Source of the DNA: Escherichia phage AnYang
Reading direction: 5' to 3' (one strand)
Length of the DNA: 64,000 bases
Sequence record: MK234886
Shown: piece by piece, positions 4,309 to 49,585 of the stretch
How positions within the stretch are numbered: position 1 is the stretch's first letter
Layout of the letters: each line of letters starts with the position of its first letter
Translations under genes and position numbers: made by a program
Notes under the pieces: model-generated
Databases searched by the model: none
The model's input: only the letters and a program-made list of their open reading frames with translations
Told to the model about the DNA's origin: nothing

Positions 4309-4572
4309 TTATTTCATATTATTGAAATAATCTTCCGCATCAAAATCGTTATCATGATAAACTTTGGTAGACAATTTAGCATAACCTTCAGCTGAGAACA
4401 TATTAATCACAACCTTAATTGTATACCATTGTCCATCATCATTACCCATTACTGCGTAAGTTTCAAATATAGGATGGTCATCACCTATAACCTTAATATC
4501 GTTAACAGTAGCACCAAATTCTTCAGGAACGCATTTCATAAAGAAATTAAACAATTCACCATAATTATCCAT
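4309..4572 (-). CDS. hypothetical protein (87 aa; ORF track start 4587 is GTG, ATG at 4572 preferred)
   Basis: AAGGAGAG RBS upstream of ATG 4572. Confidence 0.5.
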   Translation of the reverse strand: MDNYGELFNFFMKCVPEEFGATVNDIKVIGDDHPIFETYAVMGNDDGQWYTIKVVINMFSAEGYAKLSTKVYHDNDFDAEDYFNNMK

Positions 4573-4607
4573 TTTACTCTCCTTCACTCTGTTGTTTTGA
4601 TAGGTCT

Positions 4608-4636
4608 ATAGTATCATGTTTAAAGGAGGTGTAAAC
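4608..4636 (-). promoter_or_regulatory. early promoter GTTTAC-N17-TACTAT (TG-extended)
   Basis: read on minus strand; member of repeated TGATACTATAGRCCTATCAAAAC module. Confidence 0.5.
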
Positions 4637-4673
4637 AACTTTGTGAAATTATTTTTAGTCTAACCCCCAAAAA

Positions 4674-4689
4674 GGAGACCGAAGTCTCC
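4674..4689 (-). terminator. rho-independent terminator GGAGAC-UUCG-GUCUCC + U-run (minus strand)
   Basis: hairpin followed by TTTTTGGGGG on minus strand, downstream of 4695-5303 gene. Confidence 0.55.
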
Positions 4690-4694
4690 TTTCA

Positions 4695-5303
4695 TTATTT
4701 ACGAGTCTTTTCGAACTGGGCTGCGTCACCTGCAAGGCGGCCGGCTTGGCGAAGTTTGTTATTGATTTCTTCGCGCATAGGCTGGGTATACTTAAGGCCT
4801 TCAACCGTCAGATAGAGACGATACAGGTCTGGGGTATCCAGGTTGTTAATGTGTTGACCATTACGAAGAGCGTTGAATTCACGAACAAGGTGTTTAGTTT
4901 CAGATTCGATTTCAGAAACTAAAGAAGCCAGTTGGTTATATTTTTTAACTATAGTGCTGGTGTCAAACTTGATTTTAGGTTTAGGAGCTTCTTTTACAGG
5001 TTCTGGTTTAGGCGTCGGTTTCGGTGTTGCAACTTTGGGCTGAGCCGCAGGTTTAGCAACAGGAGCTTTAGTAGGTTTAGTAGCGCCACCAGCTACGATA
5101 TCTTTAAAAGCTTTGGAAGCTTTGTAATATTCTTTCTGGTTACTGGTGTCGAGCCCATACATATCATAGACGTTTTTAAAGAATTCGGTGGTGGTTTTAG
5201 TCCCAGAAATTTTATCATAAGCTGCTTGCCACATATCTTTAGTCATGCGAACGCCGGCTTCACTCAGAATGCTTTCGTTCAAAAATTCATTGTAAGTTTT
5301 CAT
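4695..5303 (-). CDS. internal-protein-like (IPIII-like) packaged protein with N-terminal capsid-targeting-type leader MKTYNEFLNES and Lys/Pro-rich centre
   Basis: leader resembles T4 IP CTS MKTYQEFIAE; late promoter TATAAATA upstream; 202 aa. Confidence 0.55.
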   Translation of the reverse strand: MKTYNEFLNESILSEAGVRMTKDMWQAAYDKISGTKTTTEFFKNVYDMYGLDTSNQKEYYKASKAFKDIVAGGATKPTKAPVAKPAAQPKVATPKPTPKPEPVKEAPKPKIKFDTSTIVKKYNQLASLVSEIESETKHLVREFNALRNGQHINNLDTPDLYRLYLTVEGLKYTQPMREEINNKLRQAGRLAGDAAQFEKTRK

Positions 5304-5331
5304 TGGTATTTCCTAAGTTAATTAACTTATC

Positions 5332-5339
5332 TATTTATA
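5332..5339 (-). promoter_or_regulatory. T4-type late promoter TATAAATA (minus strand)
   Basis: exact TATAAATA about 30 nt upstream of ATG 5303, leader AACTTAGGAAATA. Confidence 0.55.
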
Positions 5340-5345
5340 CAAAAA

Positions 5346-5365
5346 GCCCAACCTTTCGGAAGGGC
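5346..5365 (-). terminator. hairpin GCCCUUCCGAAAGGUUGGGC + U-run (minus strand)
   Basis: inverted repeat followed by TTTTTG on minus strand, downstream of 5372-5926 gene. Confidence 0.5.
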
Positions 5366-5371
5366 TGTAAA

Positions 5372-5926
5372 TCAGTTCTTATAGAATCGGAACGGGTTTA
5401 CGTGGAAGGCTAACATAGCCTTAGGGATTTTACGAGACAAAAGACTCTTAAGTTTCCAACCACAGTACACGCGAAGGTAAAAGGTAATACCTCCAACCTT
5501 AAGATAAGGAACCGAAGCAAAAACTCCCCATGCGTCATCATTCCACATCCATAGCCACCCGTGATGAGCTTTATCAGGGGAACCTGATTCCACATCAGGA
5601 TTACCGCGATAATGGAATTCTGAGCTACAATCACGTCCGAGTTTATGGTAAGCAAAGTTATAAGCTTTATTTCGCCATAGCCAAGCTACTCTCTGGAGAT
5701 AAACGCCAAAAGGTAGTTTTCTGATTTTAGCCCAACGTTTAATGTGACCTTTATCACCGTCAATTGGATTATCGTATGTCATCATCCAATCAAAGCCATA
5801 TGGTAATTTACCGGTCTTTTTATTGTGGAAAGGGACTACAAAAGGTGCAAGGATAACAGCCAGAACCATAGAGATAAAATCTAGAGGGACCAACAGAACC
5901 CAACTCAAATATTTTAAAAGTTTCAT
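5372..5926 (-). CDS. hypothetical membrane-anchored Trp-rich protein (184 aa), late-expressed
   Basis: N-terminal hydrophobic helix WVLLVPLDFISMVLAVILAPFVV; TATAAATA late promoter and AGGAAA RBS upstream. Confidence 0.55.
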   Translation of the reverse strand: MKLLKYLSWVLLVPLDFISMVLAVILAPFVVPFHNKKTGKLPYGFDWMMTYDNPIDGDKGHIKRWAKIRKLPFGVYLQRVAWLWRNKAYNFAYHKLGRDCSSEFHYRGNPDVESGSPDKAHHGWLWMWNDDAWGVFASVPYLKVGGITFYLRVYCGWKLKSLLSRKIPKAMLAFHVNPFRFYKN

Positions 5927-5952
5927 ATTATTTCCTAAGTTAGTTTACTACA

Positions 5953-5960
5953 TATTTATA
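5953..5960 (-). promoter_or_regulatory. T4-type late promoter TATAAATA (minus strand)
   Basis: exact TATAAATA about 27 nt upstream of ATG 5926. Confidence 0.55.
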
Positions 5961-5967
5961 CAAAAAA

Positions 5968-5989
5968 GGCCCGACCTTTCGGAAGGGCC
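5968..5989 (-). terminator. hairpin GGCCCUUCCGAAAGGUCGGGCC + U-run (minus strand)
   Basis: inverted repeat followed by TTTTTTG; third copy of same element at 47703-47725. Confidence 0.5.
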
Positions 5990-5995
5990 TTTAAC

Positions 5996-6225
5996 CTAGG
6001 GTAACCTTGTCGGGGTTCCACCTGCTAGGCAAGTGTTCGGTGCGCCGTTTCAGCTGTGATATAAGGGACTTTAAGAGGAACTCATGTACGCCTTAAAGTC
6101 GGGTCTTATTCAGGGAACTTCAGTCCGACGACTTACCGGTAGCGACCCGGTTTCTTGTTTGTTGCGCCGGTGAATGCTGGTAATCAGTCTTCATACGACG
6201 GCTTGACTATATAATAGTCTTCATT
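5996..6225 (-). ncRNA. candidate small stable RNA(s) adjacent to tRNA-Arg (positional analogue of T4 RNA C/D)
   Basis: 230 nt with no ORF over 25 codons and no RBS, between tRNA-Arg and a terminator; no canonical tRNA T-loop found. Confidence 0.25.
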
Positions 6226-6300
6226 TGGTATCCCGCCCTGGGATCGAACCAGGACCGCAAACTTAGAAGGATCGTATGCTATCCATTACACCAGCGGGAC
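6226..6300 (-). tRNA. tRNA-Arg (anticodon UCU), CCA encoded
   Basis: 75 nt cloverleaf read on minus strand: 7-bp acceptor stem, T-arm CCUGG-UUCGAUC-CCAGG, anticodon loop CUUCUAA. Confidence 0.85.
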
Positions 6301-6305
6301 GTAAT

Positions 6306-6971
6306 TCAAAATTTTATTTTACGGCCTTTATTCCAACCTTCAGGAATAATATCCGTTTTGTTAATACGTTTAGAAACTTTTTCTTCTAAAGAATGAATCC
6401 ACATTTTTCCATATCCGGAATTATTTTCACCTTGTTGGTGTTTATTTCTGGCGTGAGATTCTTTCATTTTATTTTTGGTTTCATCTGAATGGGTCTTACC
6501 CAAGAAAGATTTAGTATTTGAAAATTTCTCTCTATACTTAGGATTATCCCAAAGTTGTTTAAACCTTTCTGAACCCATTTTACGATATTTTTCTTTAAGG
6601 TCTGGGTCGTTCTCAAATCTGGTTTTAAAAGCGGCAACTCCTTTTAAGGAAGCTTCTTTCTTTTTATCTAAATATTCTTCAGTGTTTAAATGGTCCCAAC
6701 CACCTTCACCGCCTAATTTCAAATTATAAACATCGGGGCGCTTTAAAAACTCTTCAGTCACAATATTCTTTTCTGACTCAAACATAGAGATTTTATCGTC
6801 AAAGAACTCTAATATTTCTTTAGAGAAATTTTCTATACCGTATTTGGCCTGGGCCCTTTTCAAGAGTTTACCGGAACCAAAATATGCATCATTCAAATTT
6901 TCGGTTGAATGGGCTCCTATATAGATTTTATTATTAATTTTGTTTGTTATTTTATAAGTGTAATGGAACAT
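6306..6971 (-). CDS. segB: GIY-YIG homing endonuclease, SegB-like (221 aa)
   Basis: N-terminal YTYKITNKINNKIYIGA motif; sits between two tRNA genes as segB does in T4; AGGAGA RBS. Confidence 0.75.
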   Translation of the reverse strand: MFHYTYKITNKINNKIYIGAHSTENLNDAYFGSGKLLKRAQAKYGIENFSKEILEFFDDKISMFESEKNIVTEEFLKRPDVYNLKLGGEGGWDHLNTEEYLDKKKEASLKGVAAFKTRFENDPDLKEKYRKMGSERFKQLWDNPKYREKFSNTKSFLGKTHSDETKNKMKESHARNKHQQGENNSGYGKMWIHSLEEKVSKRINKTDIIPEGWNKGRKIKF

Positions 6972-7012
6972 AAATATCTCCTATTTCTAAGAGTATTTAT
7001 GTTCTCAAAATA

Positions 7013-7083
7013 TGGCCCTGGGTGGAATCGAACCACCATCCAGCGATTATGAGTCGCTCGCTTGACCGTCCAGCTACAGGGCC
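7013..7083 (-). tRNA. tRNA with CAU anticodon (Ile2/Met type), CCA not encoded
   Basis: cloverleaf on minus strand: acceptor GGCCCUG/CAGGGCC, anticodon stem-loop GCGA-CUCAUAA-UCGC, T-arm GGUGG-UUCGAUU-CCACC. Confidence 0.8.
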
Positions 7084-7088
7084 TTAAT

Positions 7089-7355
7089 TTAAATTACAAA
7101 TCCAGCAGGAGCATTATCATCTTTAGCCATGTGCTGAATTGTATGATAAGTCATTTCTTCAGGAGCAACCAGATAAGCCGCAGCGTTAACTAGTGGAATT
7201 ATTTTTGGTTTAGCGAATGTGCTATCGGCAATTGCCATAAAGGGCTCGCCGTCGGTCTCAACTTCACCAAATTGGCATTCATATGAAATAGAACAACGTT
7301 TGGTAGTTGTTGTCTTGGTTTCCGGGTCATAAAAAGCTAATTTTAATACTAACAT
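7089..7355 (-). CDS. hypothetical protein (88 aa; ORF track start 7361 is GTG)
   Basis: ATG 7355 preceded by GAGGTG RBS. Confidence 0.45.
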   Translation of the reverse strand: MLVLKLAFYDPETKTTTTKRCSISYECQFGEVETDGEPFMAIADSTFAKPKIIPLVNAAAYLVAPEEMTYHTIQHMAKDDNAPAGFVI

Positions 7356-7393
7356 AAACACCTCAAATAAAATTAAGTAAAGTAAGTTTGATT

Positions 7394-7439
7394 AATAGAC
7401 CTTGTCTATTATGAAAGGTTCTTTGAGGGAAGAACCTTT
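7394..7439. other. two adjacent hairpins (AATAGAC-ctt-GTCTATT and AAAGGTTC-N10-GAACCTTT)
   Basis: inverted repeats in the 130-nt spacer between two minus-strand genes. Confidence 0.35.
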
Positions 7440-7484
7440 GGTAATAGAGGGTATTAATGATAGAGTAATAATATCACATAATTC

Positions 7485-7769
7485 TTAAAGCATATTAATG
7501 TAATCAAGTTTAATAGAAGCAATCTTCAAAGGATTTTTAAAGATGTCATATTCGACCAATCCATTTTCAGTTGCGGTATAAAAAGTAAAGTTAACAGAAT
7601 TATAACGATGGCTGTTAACTTTGAGTTTAACATCGCTTGAACTACGGCCAATATTAACCTGTTGAACATCAAGCACAGCATCTTTGCCATAATTGCGAAT
7701 CAACAACTCAGCTGCAACCTGGTCTGAATTATAGCCATTCTCTGGATTAGTAACCTTAACGTATAGCAT
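7485..7769 (-). CDS. hypothetical protein (94 aa)
   Basis: ORF track; ATG immediately follows stop of upstream gene (TAAATG). Confidence 0.5.
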   Translation of the reverse strand: MLYVKVTNPENGYNSDQVAAELLIRNYGKDAVLDVQQVNIGRSSSDVKLKVNSHRYNSVNFTFYTATENGLVEYDIFKNPLKIASIKLDYINML

Positions 7770-8424: not shown

Positions 8425-8697
8425 TTATTTTAGATAAATTGCATACTTTTTATAACCAGCCGTTTCGTGACGCAGTCCTTTTTCATTAGCAAAACGTTCA
8501 ATATTGTTAATTTGATTCTGGTCAAGTTCTGAAGTATCAAAAACAAAAAAGTTTCGCTTATTGCCTAAAGTTACATGATTAGTCAAATCAATGTTATAGA
8601 GATGATTTATATTATCAATCATGGTCTTAACAGATTTGTTAATTTTTACTTCTTCATTAAGAACAGATTCAGCGATAAATTCTTGATAAGTTTTCAT
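8425..8697 (-). CDS. internal-protein-like small protein with capsid-targeting leader MKTYQEFIAES (90 aa)
   Basis: N-terminus matches T4 IP capsid-targeting consensus MKTYQEFIAE; sits next to 57B as ipI does in T4. Confidence 0.55.
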   Translation of the reverse strand: MKTYQEFIAESVLNEEVKINKSVKTMIDNINHLYNIDLTNHVTLGNKRNFFVFDTSELDQNQINNIERFANEKGLRHETAGYKKYAIYLK

Positions 8698-8698
8698 T

Positions 8699-8920
8699 TT
8701 ATTCTACGCCAGCGGCTTTCAAAAGTTTTTTAAGATTGGCGGTGCCTTGAGCAGAAAATGTGACCTTGCCGCCTTTTTCGCTGATGCTCCCAGTCAATTT
8801 AGCAAGTTTATCACTAGAGACTTTTTTAAAATCAGCCAATGTACCGTCAAAGGTTTTTGTAACAACCGGCAGTTGGTCATGTTTTTTAGCTTCTGTAATA
8901 AATTCTTGATAAGCTTTCAT
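8699..8920 (-). CDS. internal-protein-like small protein with leader MKAYQEFITEA (73 aa)
   Basis: CTS-like N-terminus; GGAAA RBS; tightly coupled to downstream IP-like ORF. Confidence 0.55.
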   Translation of the reverse strand: MKAYQEFITEAKKHDQLPVVTKTFDGTLADFKKVSSDKLAKLTGSISEKGGKVTFSAQGTANLKKLLKAAGVE

Positions 8921-12395: not shown

Positions 12396-12403
12396 TATAA
12401 ATA
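12396..12403 (+). promoter_or_regulatory. late promoter TATAAATA for gene 53
   Basis: exact TATAAATA about 28 nt upstream of ATG 12431. Confidence 0.6.
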
Positions 12404-12410
12404 TTAATAT

Positions 12411-12418
12411 TATTTATA
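12411..12418 (-). promoter_or_regulatory. late promoter TATAAATA (minus strand) for gene 4
   Basis: reverse complement TATTTATA on plus strand, 27 nt from ATG 12384. Confidence 0.55.
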
Positions 12419-20688: not shown

Positions 20689-21685
20689 TTCAACAGTAAT
20701 ATACCGTTCTATTGTTACTTCTAAATTTAGAACGGAAAAGATGTATAACTTTTACAGAACAATCGGTGATGGTGAAGACCAGAACACAATGTATGTATCT
20801 TTCGGGAGAGCCCAACCATGGGCTCCTAACGAAAACGACCCAGGCTTTGCTCCACCTTATCCTGTAGATGATTCTGAGGGCGTAGAAGACGTCTGGACAA
20901 ACATGATGGGTTGTGTTAAGGTTTATAAGAGTATGTTGGATTGTGTTGTTCCTCGCAAAGACTGGGGCGATACCTCTTATCCTAACCCTTTCACTTTCCA
21001 AATCGGTGAAATTGTAGTGGCTAACAGCCAACCTCAAAACCGTACTGATGTTGGTGCAGGTTGGATGGTTTATCGTTGTGTAGACGTGCCTGAATCAGGA
21101 GCATGTTCTATTTTGTCCCTTGATAATAAAACCGAGTGTATTAAACTTGGTGGTAAATGGACTGCTAACGTTCCTTCAGTTAAAGCCCCGGCCGGACAAG
21201 GCGATACGGAAGGTATGGTAGACACCGGTGACGGTTACCTTTGGGAATATCTTTATGAGATTCCACCTGATGTAAGTATCAACCGTTGTACTAATGAATA
21301 TATTGTAGTACCATGGCCAGAAGAAATTGCCGAAGACCCTGAACGTTGGGGATACGAGAATAACCTTACTTGGCAGCAAGACGATTATGGGTTAATTTAT
21401 CGTATTAAAGGCAATACTATTCGTTTTAAAGCATTCTTAGATTCGGTTTATTTCCCTGAATTTAGTCTGCCTGGTAACAAAGGGTTTAGACAGCTTTCGA
21501 TAATTTCTAACCCATTAAAAGCTAAAGCTCACCCATCCGATCCGATCATTAAAGCTGAAAAAGAGTACTATGATGTTATAGACCTCTCCCGCCATTCAGG
21601 TGAAATGATTTATATGGAAAACCGTCCTCCGGTTATTCGTTCCATGGACCAAACAGAAGAAATTAACATTATCTTCGAATTCTAA
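20681..21685 (+). CDS. 8: gp8 baseplate wedge protein
   Basis: ATG 20681 (track start 20678 is TTG); matches T4 gp8 as I recall it, e.g. FRTEKM, RCTNEYIVVPWPEE, MENRPP. Confidence 0.85.
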   Translation: MINSTVIYRSIVTSKFRTEKMYNFYRTIGDGEDQNTMYVSFGRAQPWAPNENDPGFAPPYPVDDSEGVEDVWTNMMGCVKVYKSMLDCVVPRKDWGDTSYPNPFTFQIGEIVVANSQPQNRTDVGAGWMVYRCVDVPESGACSILSLDNKTECIKLGGKWTANVPSVKAPAGQGDTEGMVDTGDGYLWEYLYEIPPDVSINRCTNEYIVVPWPEEIAEDPERWGYENNLTWQQDDYGLIYRIKGNTIRFKAFLDSVYFPEFSLPGNKGFRQLSIISNPLKAKAHPSDPIIKAEKEYYDVIDLSRHSGEMIYMENRPPVIRSMDQTEEINIIFEF

Positions 21686-21688
21686 TAA

Positions 21689-21702
21689 GGGCCGCAAGGC
21701 CC
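21689..21702 (+). terminator. hairpin GGGCCGCAAGGCCC after gene 8
   Basis: perfect stem with GCAA loop followed by TTTCGGGGG. Confidence 0.5.
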
Positions 21703-21711
21703 TTTCGGGGG

Positions 21712-21719
21712 TATAAATA
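21712..21719 (+). promoter_or_regulatory. late promoter TATAAATA for gene 9
   Basis: exact consensus about 27 nt upstream of ATG 21746. Confidence 0.6.
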
Positions 21720-28169: not shown

Positions 28170-28174
28170 TAAAA

Positions 28175-28186
28175 GGGCTTCGGCCC
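28175..28186 (+). terminator. rho-independent terminator GGGC-UUCG-GCCC + U7
   Basis: hairpin with UUCG tetraloop followed by TTTTTTT after wac. Confidence 0.6.
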
Positions 28187-28195
28187 TTTTTTTGC

Positions 28196-28203
28196 TATAA
28201 ATA
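28196..28203 (+). promoter_or_regulatory. late promoter TATAAATA for gene 13
   Basis: exact consensus about 22 nt upstream of ATG 28225. Confidence 0.6.
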
Positions 28204-45919: not shown

Positions 45920-45974
45920 AATTAGTCTCTTGTTGGTGTATAAATATAACTATATTTATAACTGAGAATTACTT

Positions 45975-47471
45975 ATGCAAATTCAAGTACATTTTGATAA
46001 TTTTAGTCATGTTCGTATTGAATGCGATGAATCTACATTCTACGAACTCAGAGACTATTTTAGCTTTGAAGCTGATGGATATAAATTCAACCCTAAATTT
46101 CGTTATGGGCAATGGGATGGTCGTATTCGTCTTCTGGATTATAACCGTAAACTGCCTTATGGATTGGTCCCTCAAATTAAAAAGTTCGCTGAACAATTTG
46201 AATACTCTCTGTGGATTGACCCACGTATTCTTGAACAGGAAGATATTTCTCGTGAAGATTTTGACTCATGGGTAGCTTCTCAAGAAATTTATTCAGGGTC
46301 TACCAAGATTGAGCCTCATTGGTATCAGAATGAAGCCGTATACAACGGCCTGACAAAACGTCGCGCAATTCTGAATTTACCTACATCCGCAGGTAAATCA
46401 TTAATCCAGGCGCTCCTGAGTCGATATTACGTTGAGAACTATGAAGGTAAAATCCTTATTCTGGTTCCTACTACTGCACTTGTCGACCAGATGATTAATG
46501 ACTTCATCGATTATCGTCTGTTCCCTAAAGCAGCAATGCTTGGTATTCGTTCAGGTACTGCTCGTGATTCTGATGCAATGATTTACGTTTCGACTTATCA
46601 AACTGCTATTAAGCAACCTAAAGAATGGTTTGCTCAGTTTGGTATGTTTATGAACGACGAATGCCATTTGGCTACAGGTAAATCTATTTCTACTATCATC
46701 GAAGGCCTAACCAACTGTATGTTTAAATTTGGTTTGTCTGGTTCTTTAAAAGATGGTAAAGCTAATTTAATGCAATATATGGGTTTGTTTGGTGACGTGT
46801 TTAAACCTGTTTCCACCTCCCAATTGATGGAAGAAGGACAGGTTACAGACCTTAAAATCAACAGTATTTTCCTTCGATACCCAGACGAATTCACAGTTAA
46901 GATGAAAGGTAAAGATTACCAATCAGAAATTAAAGTCATTACTAAGGCTACTCGTCGTAATAAATGGGTTGCTAATTTAGCTGTTAAACTCGCTAAGAAA
47001 GAAGAGAACGTATTCCTGATGTTTAAAAACATCGAACACGGTAAAACTCTTTTTGAAATGGTTAAAGAGCAACATAAAGAAGTTTATTATGTATCAGGTG
47101 AAGTTAATACCGAAACGCGTAATGCTCTGAAAGTAATGGCGGAAAATGGTAAGGGTATTATTGTTGTGGCAAGTTATGGTGTGTTCTCTACTGGTATTTC
47201 CGTTAAGAACCTTCACCACGTTGTATTTGCTCATCCGGTAAAATCTAAAATCATTGTACTCCAGACAATTGGTCGTGTACTCCGTAAACATGCTTCTAAA
47301 TCAACAGCACAAGTATGGGATATCATCGACGACATGGGTGTTAAGCCTAAATCAGCTACGGCTAAAAAGAAATATGTTCATTTGAACTACGCCCTCAAAC
47401 ACGCTTTAGAACGTATTCAACGTTATGCTGATGAGAAATTTAATTACGTAATGAAACAGGTGGATTTATGA
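45975..47471 (+). CDS. uvsW: UvsW DNA/RNA helicase
   Basis: Walker A PTSAGKS, DEAH-like box DECH, 498 aa. Confidence 0.9.
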   Translation: MQIQVHFDNFSHVRIECDESTFYELRDYFSFEADGYKFNPKFRYGQWDGRIRLLDYNRKLPYGLVPQIKKFAEQFEYSLWIDPRILEQEDISREDFDSWVASQEIYSGSTKIEPHWYQNEAVYNGLTKRRAILNLPTSAGKSLIQALLSRYYVENYEGKILILVPTTALVDQMINDFIDYRLFPKAAMLGIRSGTARDSDAMIYVSTYQTAIKQPKEWFAQFGMFMNDECHLATGKSISTIIEGLTNCMFKFGLSGSLKDGKANLMQYMGLFGDVFKPVSTSQLMEEGQVTDLKINSIFLRYPDEFTVKMKGKDYQSEIKVITKATRRNKWVANLAVKLAKKEENVFLMFKNIEHGKTLFEMVKEQHKEVYYVSGEVNTETRNALKVMAENGKGIIVVASYGVFSTGISVKNLHHVVFAHPVKSKIIVLQTIGRVLRKHASKSTAQVWDIIDDMGVKPKSATAKKKYVHLNYALKHALERIQRYADEKFNYVMKQVDL

Positions 47472-47695
47472 AAACCTTTAAAGAAGTTATTCAGGAAGCA
47501 TCTATTGAAAGCTTCATGTCTAAAATTAGTTCTTGTCAGACCATGGACGGTCTGGAGGAATTGGAGAAGTATTACAAAACTCGTAGTAAGGAAGCCGAAC
47601 TTCGTGATTCGGATGATATTAGCGTGCGCGATGCATTGGCTGGTAAGAGAGCTGAATTGGAGTCGATGGACGACGAGGAAGAGGAAGATTTCTAA
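47468..47695 (+). CDS. uvsW.1: UvsW.1 small acidic protein
   Basis: 75 aa, ATGA overlap with uvsW stop. Confidence 0.7.
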   Translation: MKTFKEVIQEASIESFMSKISSCQTMDGLEELEKYYKTRSKEAELRDSDDISVRDALAGKRAELESMDDEEEEDF

Positions 47696-47702
47696 ACAAA
47701 AA

Positions 47703-47725
47703 GGGCCCAACCTTTCGGAAGGGCC
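47703..47725 (-). terminator. hairpin GGCCCUUCCGAAAGGUUGGGCCC + U-run (minus strand)
   Basis: third copy of the element at 5346 and 5968; T-run on minus strand. Confidence 0.5.
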
Positions 47726-49573: not shown

Positions 49574-49585
49574 TATTTATAAATA
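49574..49585. promoter_or_regulatory. overlapping divergent late promoters (palindrome TATTTATAAATA) for genes 26 (minus) and 51 (plus)
   Basis: TATAAATA readable on both strands within 12 nt between divergent genes. Confidence 0.5.

Follow-up and report, generated by a model that had tools for sequence, protein, structure and literature searches.

The stretch of DNA analysed here, 64,000 nucleotides (nt) from Escherichia phage AnYang (record MK234886; "the window" below), is that of a Dhakavirus, a JS98-like phage of the T4 type, and its best matches are KIT01 (95.5%) and JS98 (92%). At the end of its tRNA cluster the minus strand carries, twice over, a short element in which a terminator-like hairpin is joined directly to a T4-type late-promoter box, and it is this composite, together with the two accessory genes that follow its two copies, that we describe. 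The gene order is as in T4, running from tRNA-Met through segB, tRNA-Arg and an rnaD-like segment to the hairpin and then to e.8. Between the hairpin and e.8 lie two open reading frames (ORFs), ORF184 (5372-5926) and ORF202 (4695-5303), both on the minus strand. Read in that direction, the locus consists of hairpin A, late-promoter box A, ORF184, hairpin B, late-promoter box B, ORF202 and a hairpin with a UUCG loop.

A first-pass annotation of this DNA had described the unit as occurring twice on the minus strand, with a third copy of the hairpin near 47703-47725. Alignment of the copies bears out both statements, the coordinates being right to within 1-2 nt. The 20-nt hairpin GCCCTTCCGAAAGGTYGGGC is found on the minus strand as copy A (5988-5969), copy B (5365-5346) and copy C (47724-47705). 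Searching with the pattern GCCCTTCCGAAAGGYYGGGC and tolerating up to three mismatches returns exactly these three matches in the window, all on the minus strand, and none in 100 dinucleotide-preserving shuffles. An exact TATAAATA lies on the minus strand at 5953-5960 in unit A and at 5332-5339 in unit B, the window as a whole holding 20 such sites against 7.5 ± 2.8 expected. In both units T5-T6, a G and TATAAATA come after the hairpin, and the leaders, which resemble each other, include a ribosome-binding site. The full arrangement is AAAGGCCCTTCCGAAAGGTCGGGCCTTTTTTGTATAAATA-N26-ATG in copy A and ACAGCCCTTCCGAAAGGTTGGGCTTTTTGTATAAATA-N28-ATG in copy B, placing the box 26 and 28 nt from the start codon respectively, and TAACTTAGGAAATA is present in both leaders. 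Identity between the two units is 81% across the 78 aligned columns that run from hairpin to ATG, compared with just 51-53% for the 100-nt flanks on each side, and a repeat search recovers them as two direct-repeat blocks spaced by 622-623 nt. We conclude from this set of results that the repeated unit is real and non-random.

The hairpin family is nevertheless a small one. In the KIT01 genome, positions 1-65 kb and 125-172.5 kb, which the window does not cover, contain no extra copy when up to four substitutions are allowed, so the family amounts to about three copies per genome, and we reject the idea of a genome-wide repeat family. A scan of IMG/VR for the hairpin-promoter composite returned only 7 loci.

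All three hairpins fold in the same way: the stem has 4-5 G-C pairs and two C-G pairs with a 2x2 UU/UY internal loop between them, and is capped by GAAA. Their free energies are -12.8 (B), -16.8 (A) and -14.7 (C) kcal/mol (z-scores of -2.4 to -3.4 against shuffles). Hairpin A (GGCCCUUCC-GAAA-GGUCGGGCC; 5968-5989, minus strand; -16.8 kcal/mol) has a stem that can be extended via AAA/UUU to 5965-5992, and is followed by a T6 run (5962-5967, minus strand) that directly abuts late-promoter box A. Hairpin B (GCCCUUCC-GAAA-GGUUGGGC; 5346-5365, minus strand; -12.8 kcal/mol) lies 6 nt past the stop codon of ORF184, is followed by a T5 run (5341-5345, minus strand) and would serve as terminator of the ORF184 unit. 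Hairpin C (47705-47724, minus strand) is identical to hairpin B and is followed by CUUUUUGUUU, without TATAAATA. The predicted terminator of the ORF202 unit is the UUCG hairpin, AAAGGAGAC-UUCG-GUCUCCUUU with its T-run (4671-4692, minus strand; -13.9 kcal/mol).

Each of hairpins A, B and C thus has the form of an intrinsic terminator, a G+C-rich stem-loop and then a U-run of T5-T6, and each has the position of one, at the end of a transcription unit and conserved in relatives. A simple terminator scan detected copy A and missed copies B and C, since it does not read the stem as continuous across the internal loop; our hairpin calls rest on folding instead. The records of phages G8 and PhAPEC2 carry homologous hairpins annotated as "putative terminators", and the first-pass description of the element as a terminator hairpin agrees with these annotations as well as with the form of the hairpins and their positional counterparts in T4.

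Those counterparts are found for two of the copies. Hairpin A aligns with GCCCCGACC-GAAA-GGTTGGGGC followed by T5 in T4, and lies 3' of the same conserved trailer (AACACTTGCC..GGTGGAACCCCGACAAGGTT..), which in T4 stands downstream of rnaC and leads into this hairpin. The T4 hairpin after rnaC is presumably the terminator of the tRNA/stable-RNA operon. Since T4 has the same trailer and then the counterpart hairpin, we take hairpin A to be the resident hairpin that ends the tRNA/stable-RNA cluster, that is, the probable terminator of the operon, a role that the first-pass annotation had missed. Hairpin C is flanked by two convergent genes, uvsW.1 (plus strand, 47468-47695; PF11637) and uvsY.-2 (minus strand, 47923-47756; PF10886), and at the uvsW/uvsY.-2 junction T4 has GGCCCTTCC-TTTTT-GGTTGGGCC. 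A bidirectional terminator after uvsW.1 has been reported as conserved across T4-like genomes (Nolan et al. 2006, PMC1524935). Hairpins A and C therefore occupy the same positions as the T4 tRNA-cluster and uvsW.1/uvsY.-2 terminators and have arms or loop in common with them. The two genomes differ in that the tRNA-region hairpin of T4 is followed by neither TATAAATA nor a cassette, and in that the two T4 hairpins differ from one another, whereas the three Dhakavirus copies have nearly the same sequence. At the junction itself, the arms of the T4 hairpin, with their unpaired UU/UU internal loop, are those of hairpin C, while a UUUUU loop replaces GAAA; the non-pairing internal loop has thus been kept across genera in the GGCCCTTCC...GGTTGGGCC arms.

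Turning to the promoters, the T4 late-promoter consensus is TATAAATA, which spans -13 to -6, tolerates A or T at -13 and is read by gp55 with gp33 and gp45 (PMC1524935). Boxes A and B both match this consensus exactly and have no -35 element. Transcription would start near 5947-5946 from box A and near 5326 from box B, and the spacing of the boxes to ATG compares well with the 18-29 nt seen for late boxes of the window that lie 5' of structural-gene starts. Leader A (5927-5952, minus strand), of a DUF7338 type ending ...TAAACTAACTTAGGAAATAAT, has an AGGA Shine-Dalgarno sequence at 5936-5933, and leader B (5304-5331, minus strand), of an internal-protein (IP) type reading GATAAGTTAATTAAC..AGGAAA, has one at 5314-5311. 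The intervals between hairpin and start codon of ORF184 and ORF202 contain no sigma-70-like promoter, no GTTTAC early motif and no MotA box. One candidate, TTTACA at 5371, was rejected as a promoter because it has no -10 partner at 16-18 nt. The late-promoter motif proposed in the first-pass annotation therefore stands: it is an exact consensus at the usual distance from ATG, with no alternative promoter in the interval. Although the genes for gp55, gp33 and gp45 fall outside the window, all three are annotated in the closest relative, KIT01.

Which positions are held constant can be seen when 11 homologous units are aligned, drawn from the genera Dhakavirus, Tequatrovirus, Mosigvirus and Gaprivervirus. 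The hairpin arms, the GAAA loop, the T-run, ATAAATA and the central GGA of AGGA are invariant or nearly so, and the remaining leader positions are variable. Mosigvirus has the box variant AATAAATA, consistent with the reported A/T freedom at -13. Leader types travel with their cargo, GATAAGTTAATTAAC.. with genes that encode a capsid-targeting leader and ..TAAACTAA.. with DUF7338; the IP-type leader B is common to the IP-like cassettes of Tequatrovirus and Mosigvirus. Given the exact consensus, the spacing, the lack of alternative promoters, the conservation among the 11 units and the presence of gp55, gp33 and gp45 in KIT01, late initiation of ORF184 and ORF202 is well supported by the sequence.

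Terminator-like hairpins that directly abut TATAAATA also occur on the plus strand at 21680-21719 and 28170-28203, with the sequences GGGCCGCAAGGCCC..TATAAATA and AAAAGGGCTTCGGCCCTTTTTTTGCTATAAATA. These hairpins are unrelated to A, B and C but share the layout, from which we take the abutment of terminator and late promoter to be a general design in this genome.

ORF184 is a full-length match to DUF7338 (PF24027, E = 4.7e-64; phrog_2143). It has 10 Trp residues (5.4%) and a single N-terminal hydrophobic segment (~residues 7-33), which makes "Trp-rich membrane protein", as it was first called, a fair description. A literature search returned nothing on DUF7338, and the label "holin" that it bears in two records is apparently an automatic annotation. 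By tblastn, 591 phage records contain the gene, amino-acid identity to the Felix O1-like phages being ~56%. In unrelated phages it adjoins tRNA genes: in Felixounavirus wV8 it is enclosed by the tRNA cluster, in Gelderlandvirus SEA1 it is downstream of tRNA-Arg, and it lies 3' of a tRNA-like sequence in Karamvirus KMB19 and 3' of an rnaC-like element in Gaprivervirus RZ.

ORF202 (phrog_2280) begins MKTYNEFLNE|S, a capsid-targeting-like N-terminus that ends in L-x-E, as compared with MKTYQEFIAE|A in T4 IPII and IPIII and MKTFKEFTST in IPI. Its capsid-targeting sequence thus closes with a prohead-protease site of the (L/I)-x-E form, and this cleavage rule is established for T4 gp21. BLASTP of ORF202 against T4 IPIII aligns residues 1-25 only (E = 0.003), with no similarity past ~residue 25. 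The first-pass term "IPIII-like" is therefore right for the N-terminal leader and wrong for the rest of the protein, and, given also its membership of phrog_2280, we reject ORF202 as a homologue of IPIII. An N-terminal capsid-targeting leader is, however, the defining shared feature of internal proteins (PMC3012670; PMC12373910). As the leader is all that it shares with IPIII, we regard ORF202 as a candidate internal head protein, and one that is probably packaged in the virion. A literature search for virion proteomics of JS98 returned nothing relevant. Among other phages, a close homologue with the same architecture is found in Mosigvirus p000v, and there is weak similarity to a PhAPEC2 protein annotated as RB69 ORF149c-like.

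ORF202 is not the only leader-bearing ORF in the window. Two minus-strand ORFs (8425-8697 and 8699-8920) at the ipI locus, which has 57B and trna.4 on its two sides, have the N-termini MKTYQEFIAES... and MKAYQEFITEA... No minus-strand TATAAATA lies near these ORFs (8425-8920), and that strand has sigma-70-like promoter matches at 8985-8958, 8618-8591 and 8421-8393. Set beside the late box of ORF202, this implies that internal-protein candidates of one genome appear to use two promoter classes.

How the two genes are distributed among relatives bears directly on what the unit does. ORF184 and ORF202 are both present in JS98, KIT01 and the window. IME08 lacks ORF184, and has a single unit in which the A-type upstream flank and T6 run are joined to the B-type leader; the junction is an exact A/B chimera inside the 36-bp core that the two units share, as is expected from a crossover within that core. 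In MX01 and LHE83, ORF202 and its TATAAATA are both missing, and the e.8 early promoter comes immediately after hairpin B. Tequatrovirus G8 is like T4 at this locus but for the addition, between two T4-type hairpins, of TATAAATA, an IP-type leader and a 153-residue protein beginning MKTY, so that relative to T4 the cassette is bounded by a ~30-bp direct repeat of the hairpin. Mosigvirus p000v has the tRNA-region hairpin with TATAAATA, the ORF202 homologue, a UUCG hairpin and an early promoter. Finally, Mosigvirus PHB12 and the near-identical LF82-1 carry a DUF7338 cassette at another locus, after rI, in the order hairpin, TATAAATA, DUF7338 gene, hairpin.

The indel junctions of IME08, of MX01 and LHE83, of G8 relative to T4 and of PHB12/LF82-1 thus lie within the units, and recombination is their probable cause. 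On this comparison we read the units as the borders of cassettes that are present, absent or relocated among relatives, a point that the first-pass annotation had missed. Because promoter, leader and hairpins accompany the cargo from one relative to another, each ORF appears to form, with its late promoter, leader and terminator, a module that is autonomous, and such modules seem to stack downstream of a pre-existing terminator. Within a genome the hairpins that flank a cassette are of the same subtype (GCCCCGACC in G8, GCCCCTTCC in the Mosigviruses and LF82-1, GCCCTTCC in Dhakavirus), whereas the subtype differs between genera despite homologous cargo or leader. The matching flanks suggest either that the resident hairpin is duplicated on insertion or that gene conversion has occurred. 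Base composition gives no clear sign of a foreign origin, as the G+C content of the two genes (40.7% and 42.0%) differs little from the 39.6% of the window as a whole.

Our preferred reading, to which we would assign a probability of roughly 70%, is that the unit is a terminator/late-promoter composite that insulates, times and shuffles late cassettes. The composite would be ~35 bp long and would consist of an intrinsic terminator, namely the GC hairpin with its GAAA loop and U-run, joined directly to a T4-type late promoter; a late promoter can abut the U-run in this way because 8 bp suffice and no -35 element is needed. Two tandem cassettes would lie 3' of hairpin A, each made up of TATAAATA, a ~25-nt leader with AGGA, an ORF and a terminator hairpin, the first encoding the presumed membrane-anchored DUF7338 protein and the second the protein with a T4 capsid-targeting leader. 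Early and middle transcription from the tRNA cluster would end at hairpin A. Once replication begins, RNA polymerase modified by gp55, gp33 and gp45 would initiate near 5947 and 5326, to give two monocistronic mRNAs of ~0.6-0.66 kb, the first ending at hairpin B and the second at the UUCG hairpin, and the 3' hairpins might also shield these transcripts from degradation. Such timing would suit ORF202, because a capsid-targeted protein should be made during prohead assembly. With near-identical composites at successive gene borders, the T4 recombination machinery, which acts on very short homologies (PMC9391042; PMC2839356), would be offered ~36 bp of homology, and crossovers within the composite may delete, insert or relocate whole, correctly regulated cassettes.

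Several observations count against this reading. Late timing, termination efficiency and insulation are all deduced from sequence, and the regulatory reading of the first-pass annotation, in which both genes are insulated and late-expressed, is accordingly plausible but supported only in part. The hairpins have a 2x2 U/U(C) internal loop and only modest stability (-12.8 to -16.8 kcal/mol), which weakens the stems and makes read-through possible. Copy C has neither a promoter nor a neighbouring indel, so the hairpin by itself is not diagnostic of a cassette. The T4 IP genes stand behind early-type promoters, with no TATAAATA within ~100 nt, meaning that a capsid-targeting leader does not by itself need a dedicated late promoter. 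The ORF202 indel, moreover, is not flanked by two identical long repeats, its right border being the UUCG hairpin with T-run microhomology only; exchange at the composite would explain the ORF184 indel cleanly, but the ORF202 indel less well. It is important to note, too, that each indel may be read either as an insertion or as a deletion.

The T-run microhomology on the right side of the ORF202 indel is what one might expect if the units were regulatory only, that is, ordinary terminators and late promoters with no role in gene mobility, copy B having arisen by one local duplication of copy A and been kept by functional constraint, and the indels ending in intergenic DNA by chance. The abutments of TATAAATA with unrelated hairpins at 21.7 kb and 28.2 kb point the same way, as does the fact that T4 recombines at very short homologies anyway (PMC9391042). 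Yet chance would then have had to place the IME08 junction as an exact A/B chimera within the 36-bp core and to bound the G8 cassette, relative to T4, by a ~30-bp direct repeat of the hairpin, and the same cargo recurs in other genera and at another locus, always between two like hairpins. We therefore consider a purely regulatory role unlikely.

A more sceptical view would deny the boxes any function. The TATAAATA sites would go unused, the ORFs would be expressed by early or middle read-through, and the hairpins would be elements of RNA processing or stability that protect the 3' ends of the tRNA/stable-RNA precursor and of the mRNAs. Hairpin A does end a region that yields a processed stable-RNA precursor, the stems are weakened by the internal loop, and the T4 IP genes have early-type promoters. 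Against this, however, the distance of ATAAATA to both hairpin and ATG has been kept across four genera while neighbouring leader positions vary, the spacing to ATG equals that of late promoters 5' of structural-gene starts, and U-runs of 5-6 follow each stem. Furthermore, ORF202 and TATAAATA are jointly absent in MX01 and LHE83, from which we take it that the box travels with the gene. Unused boxes strike us as quite improbable.

Least probable of all is that the hairpin is the target of a site-specific nuclease or recombinase, or of repair of breaks started by SegB, leading to targeted gene conversion: a SegB orthologue does lie 320 bp upstream of hairpin A and is variably present in relatives, flanking hairpins are alike within a genome and different between genera, and Arbiol et al. 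both speculated on a protein that recognises PeSL stem-loops (the composites introduced below) and cited T4 deletions ending at GGGC/GCCC inverted repeats (PMC2839356), but the cassettes carry no recombinase or extra nuclease gene, no homing-endonuclease gene is found within 0.9-1.5 kb on either side of the rI-locus cassette of PHB12 and LF82-1, copy C has no indel, and general recombination of the T4 type is sufficient for the junctions.

The insulating, timing and shuffling composite that we favour has clear precedents. The closest is the PeSL, a composite of stem-loop and early promoter that flanks ORFans and mediates indels in T4-type phages (PMC2839356; PMC4122927). Like the PeSLs (Arbiol, Comeau & Krisch 2010; Comeau et al. 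2014), the unit combines a small G/C stem-loop terminator with a promoter, is repeated at the borders of accessory ORFs in a hyperplastic region, coincides with the indel borders of close relatives and would give the mobilised gene its regulation. It differs in having an 8-bp gp55-type TATAAATA where the PeSL has a sigma-70-like early promoter, in its GCCC...GGGC stems with GAAA loop and U/U internal loop, and in a cargo that is predicted to be late. For PeSLs, mini-circle intermediates have been demonstrated. Late promoters are not discussed in either PeSL paper (PMC2839356; PMC4122927).

A second precedent comes from T-even phages, at whose IP loci (Repoila et al. 1994, as related in PMC2839356) variable genes have a common leader and conserved flanks of promoter and stem-loop that, by the same account, are thought to allow gene swapping. 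Those flanks are described there as early promoters with weak AT-rich stem-loops, a description that fits T4 ipI, ipII and ipIII, whereas here we find a strong GC hairpin with a late promoter; the unit here, moreover, sits at the tRNA-cluster terminator and serves also a non-IP gene, that for DUF7338. The lambdoid morons (Hendrix/Juhala, as cited in PMC1524935 and PMC2839356) offer a third comparison: there too, one accessory gene, equipped with a promoter and a terminator, has been inserted between genes that are adjacent in relatives. Morons, though, use a host sigma-70 promoter that is active in lysogens, while the promoter here is a phage late promoter in a virulent phage, and the distinct base composition of a moron is not seen in these two genes. 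We would therefore place the unit, on its sequence features, as a probable late-promoter variant of the PeSL- and moron-type modular cassettes already known in T4-type phages. Nolan et al. found late promoters only before conserved late genes and described novel ORFs as early genes (PMC1524935), from which late-promoter cassettes with accessory ORFs deviate to a modest degree.

More tentatively, and with some doubt, the composite could be one of a class of portable late linkers, a counterpart of the PeSL, that move late accessory genes between genera of T4-like phages and between loci of one genome. Were this so, the cargo would include injected internal proteins and the widespread DUF7338 membrane protein, movement would perhaps proceed via excised circles, and the flanking hairpins would be kept alike by gene conversion. 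The internal proteins of T-even phages are injected and counter host defence; those of T4, Ip1, Ip2 and Ip3, block three GmrSD Type IV restriction enzymes, one each (PMC12373910). The exchange of correctly timed internal-protein genes bears on the evolution of host range, and on phage engineering. No new mechanism is revealed by our reading, but it offers a simple rule, in which a joint of ~35 bp would insulate a gene from early transcription, set late timing and supply the homology for swapping. The rule may be of use in annotating Straboviridae genomes and in placing late-expressed payloads in T4-like phages, and it makes testable predictions for the timing of the DUF7338 gene and ORF202.

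The surroundings of the two cassettes are of early type, as the first-pass annotation had held. The e.8 homologue (4587-4309, minus strand) is preceded by a sigma-70-like early promoter, TTTACA-16-TACTAT with TG (4608-4635, minus strand), which we read as marking the return to early-type organisation. On the other side lie, all on the minus strand, tRNA-Met (7083-7013), a gene for an orthologue of the GIY-YIG homing endonuclease SegB (6971-6306; 76% amino-acid identity to T4 SegB), tRNA-Arg (6300-6226) and, between tRNA-Arg and hairpin A, an rnaD (species 2)-like stable-RNA segment with the conserved trailer (5990-6225). A scan of 4500-7500 against Rfam at the E-value threshold returned the two tRNAs and one spurious match overlapping tRNA-Met, with no family over the hairpin or the rnaD-like segment; neither rnaC nor rnaD is matched by an Rfam family.

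This part of the genome varies among relatives in other respects. The segB gene between tRNA-Met and tRNA-Arg is present in LHE83 and G8 and absent from KIT01, JS98 and IME08, and co-conversion driven by SegB homing may add to the mosaicism of the region. The rnaC (species 1, tRNA-like) segment has been kept in KIT01 and LHE83 and is missing from the window. A stretch of ~75 nt (AAATGAAGACTATTATATAGTC...GGCGCAACAAACA), which in the window separates tRNA-Arg from the rnaD (species 2)-like segment, is present in KIT01, and in MX01 for at least its 3' half, and is absent from JS98 and IME08. Elsewhere in the window, TATAAATA boxes lie back to back on opposite strands within 12-23 bp at 12396-12418, 45939-45960 and 49574-49585, which probably makes each pair a set of divergent late promoters, placed between structural genes of opposite orientation.

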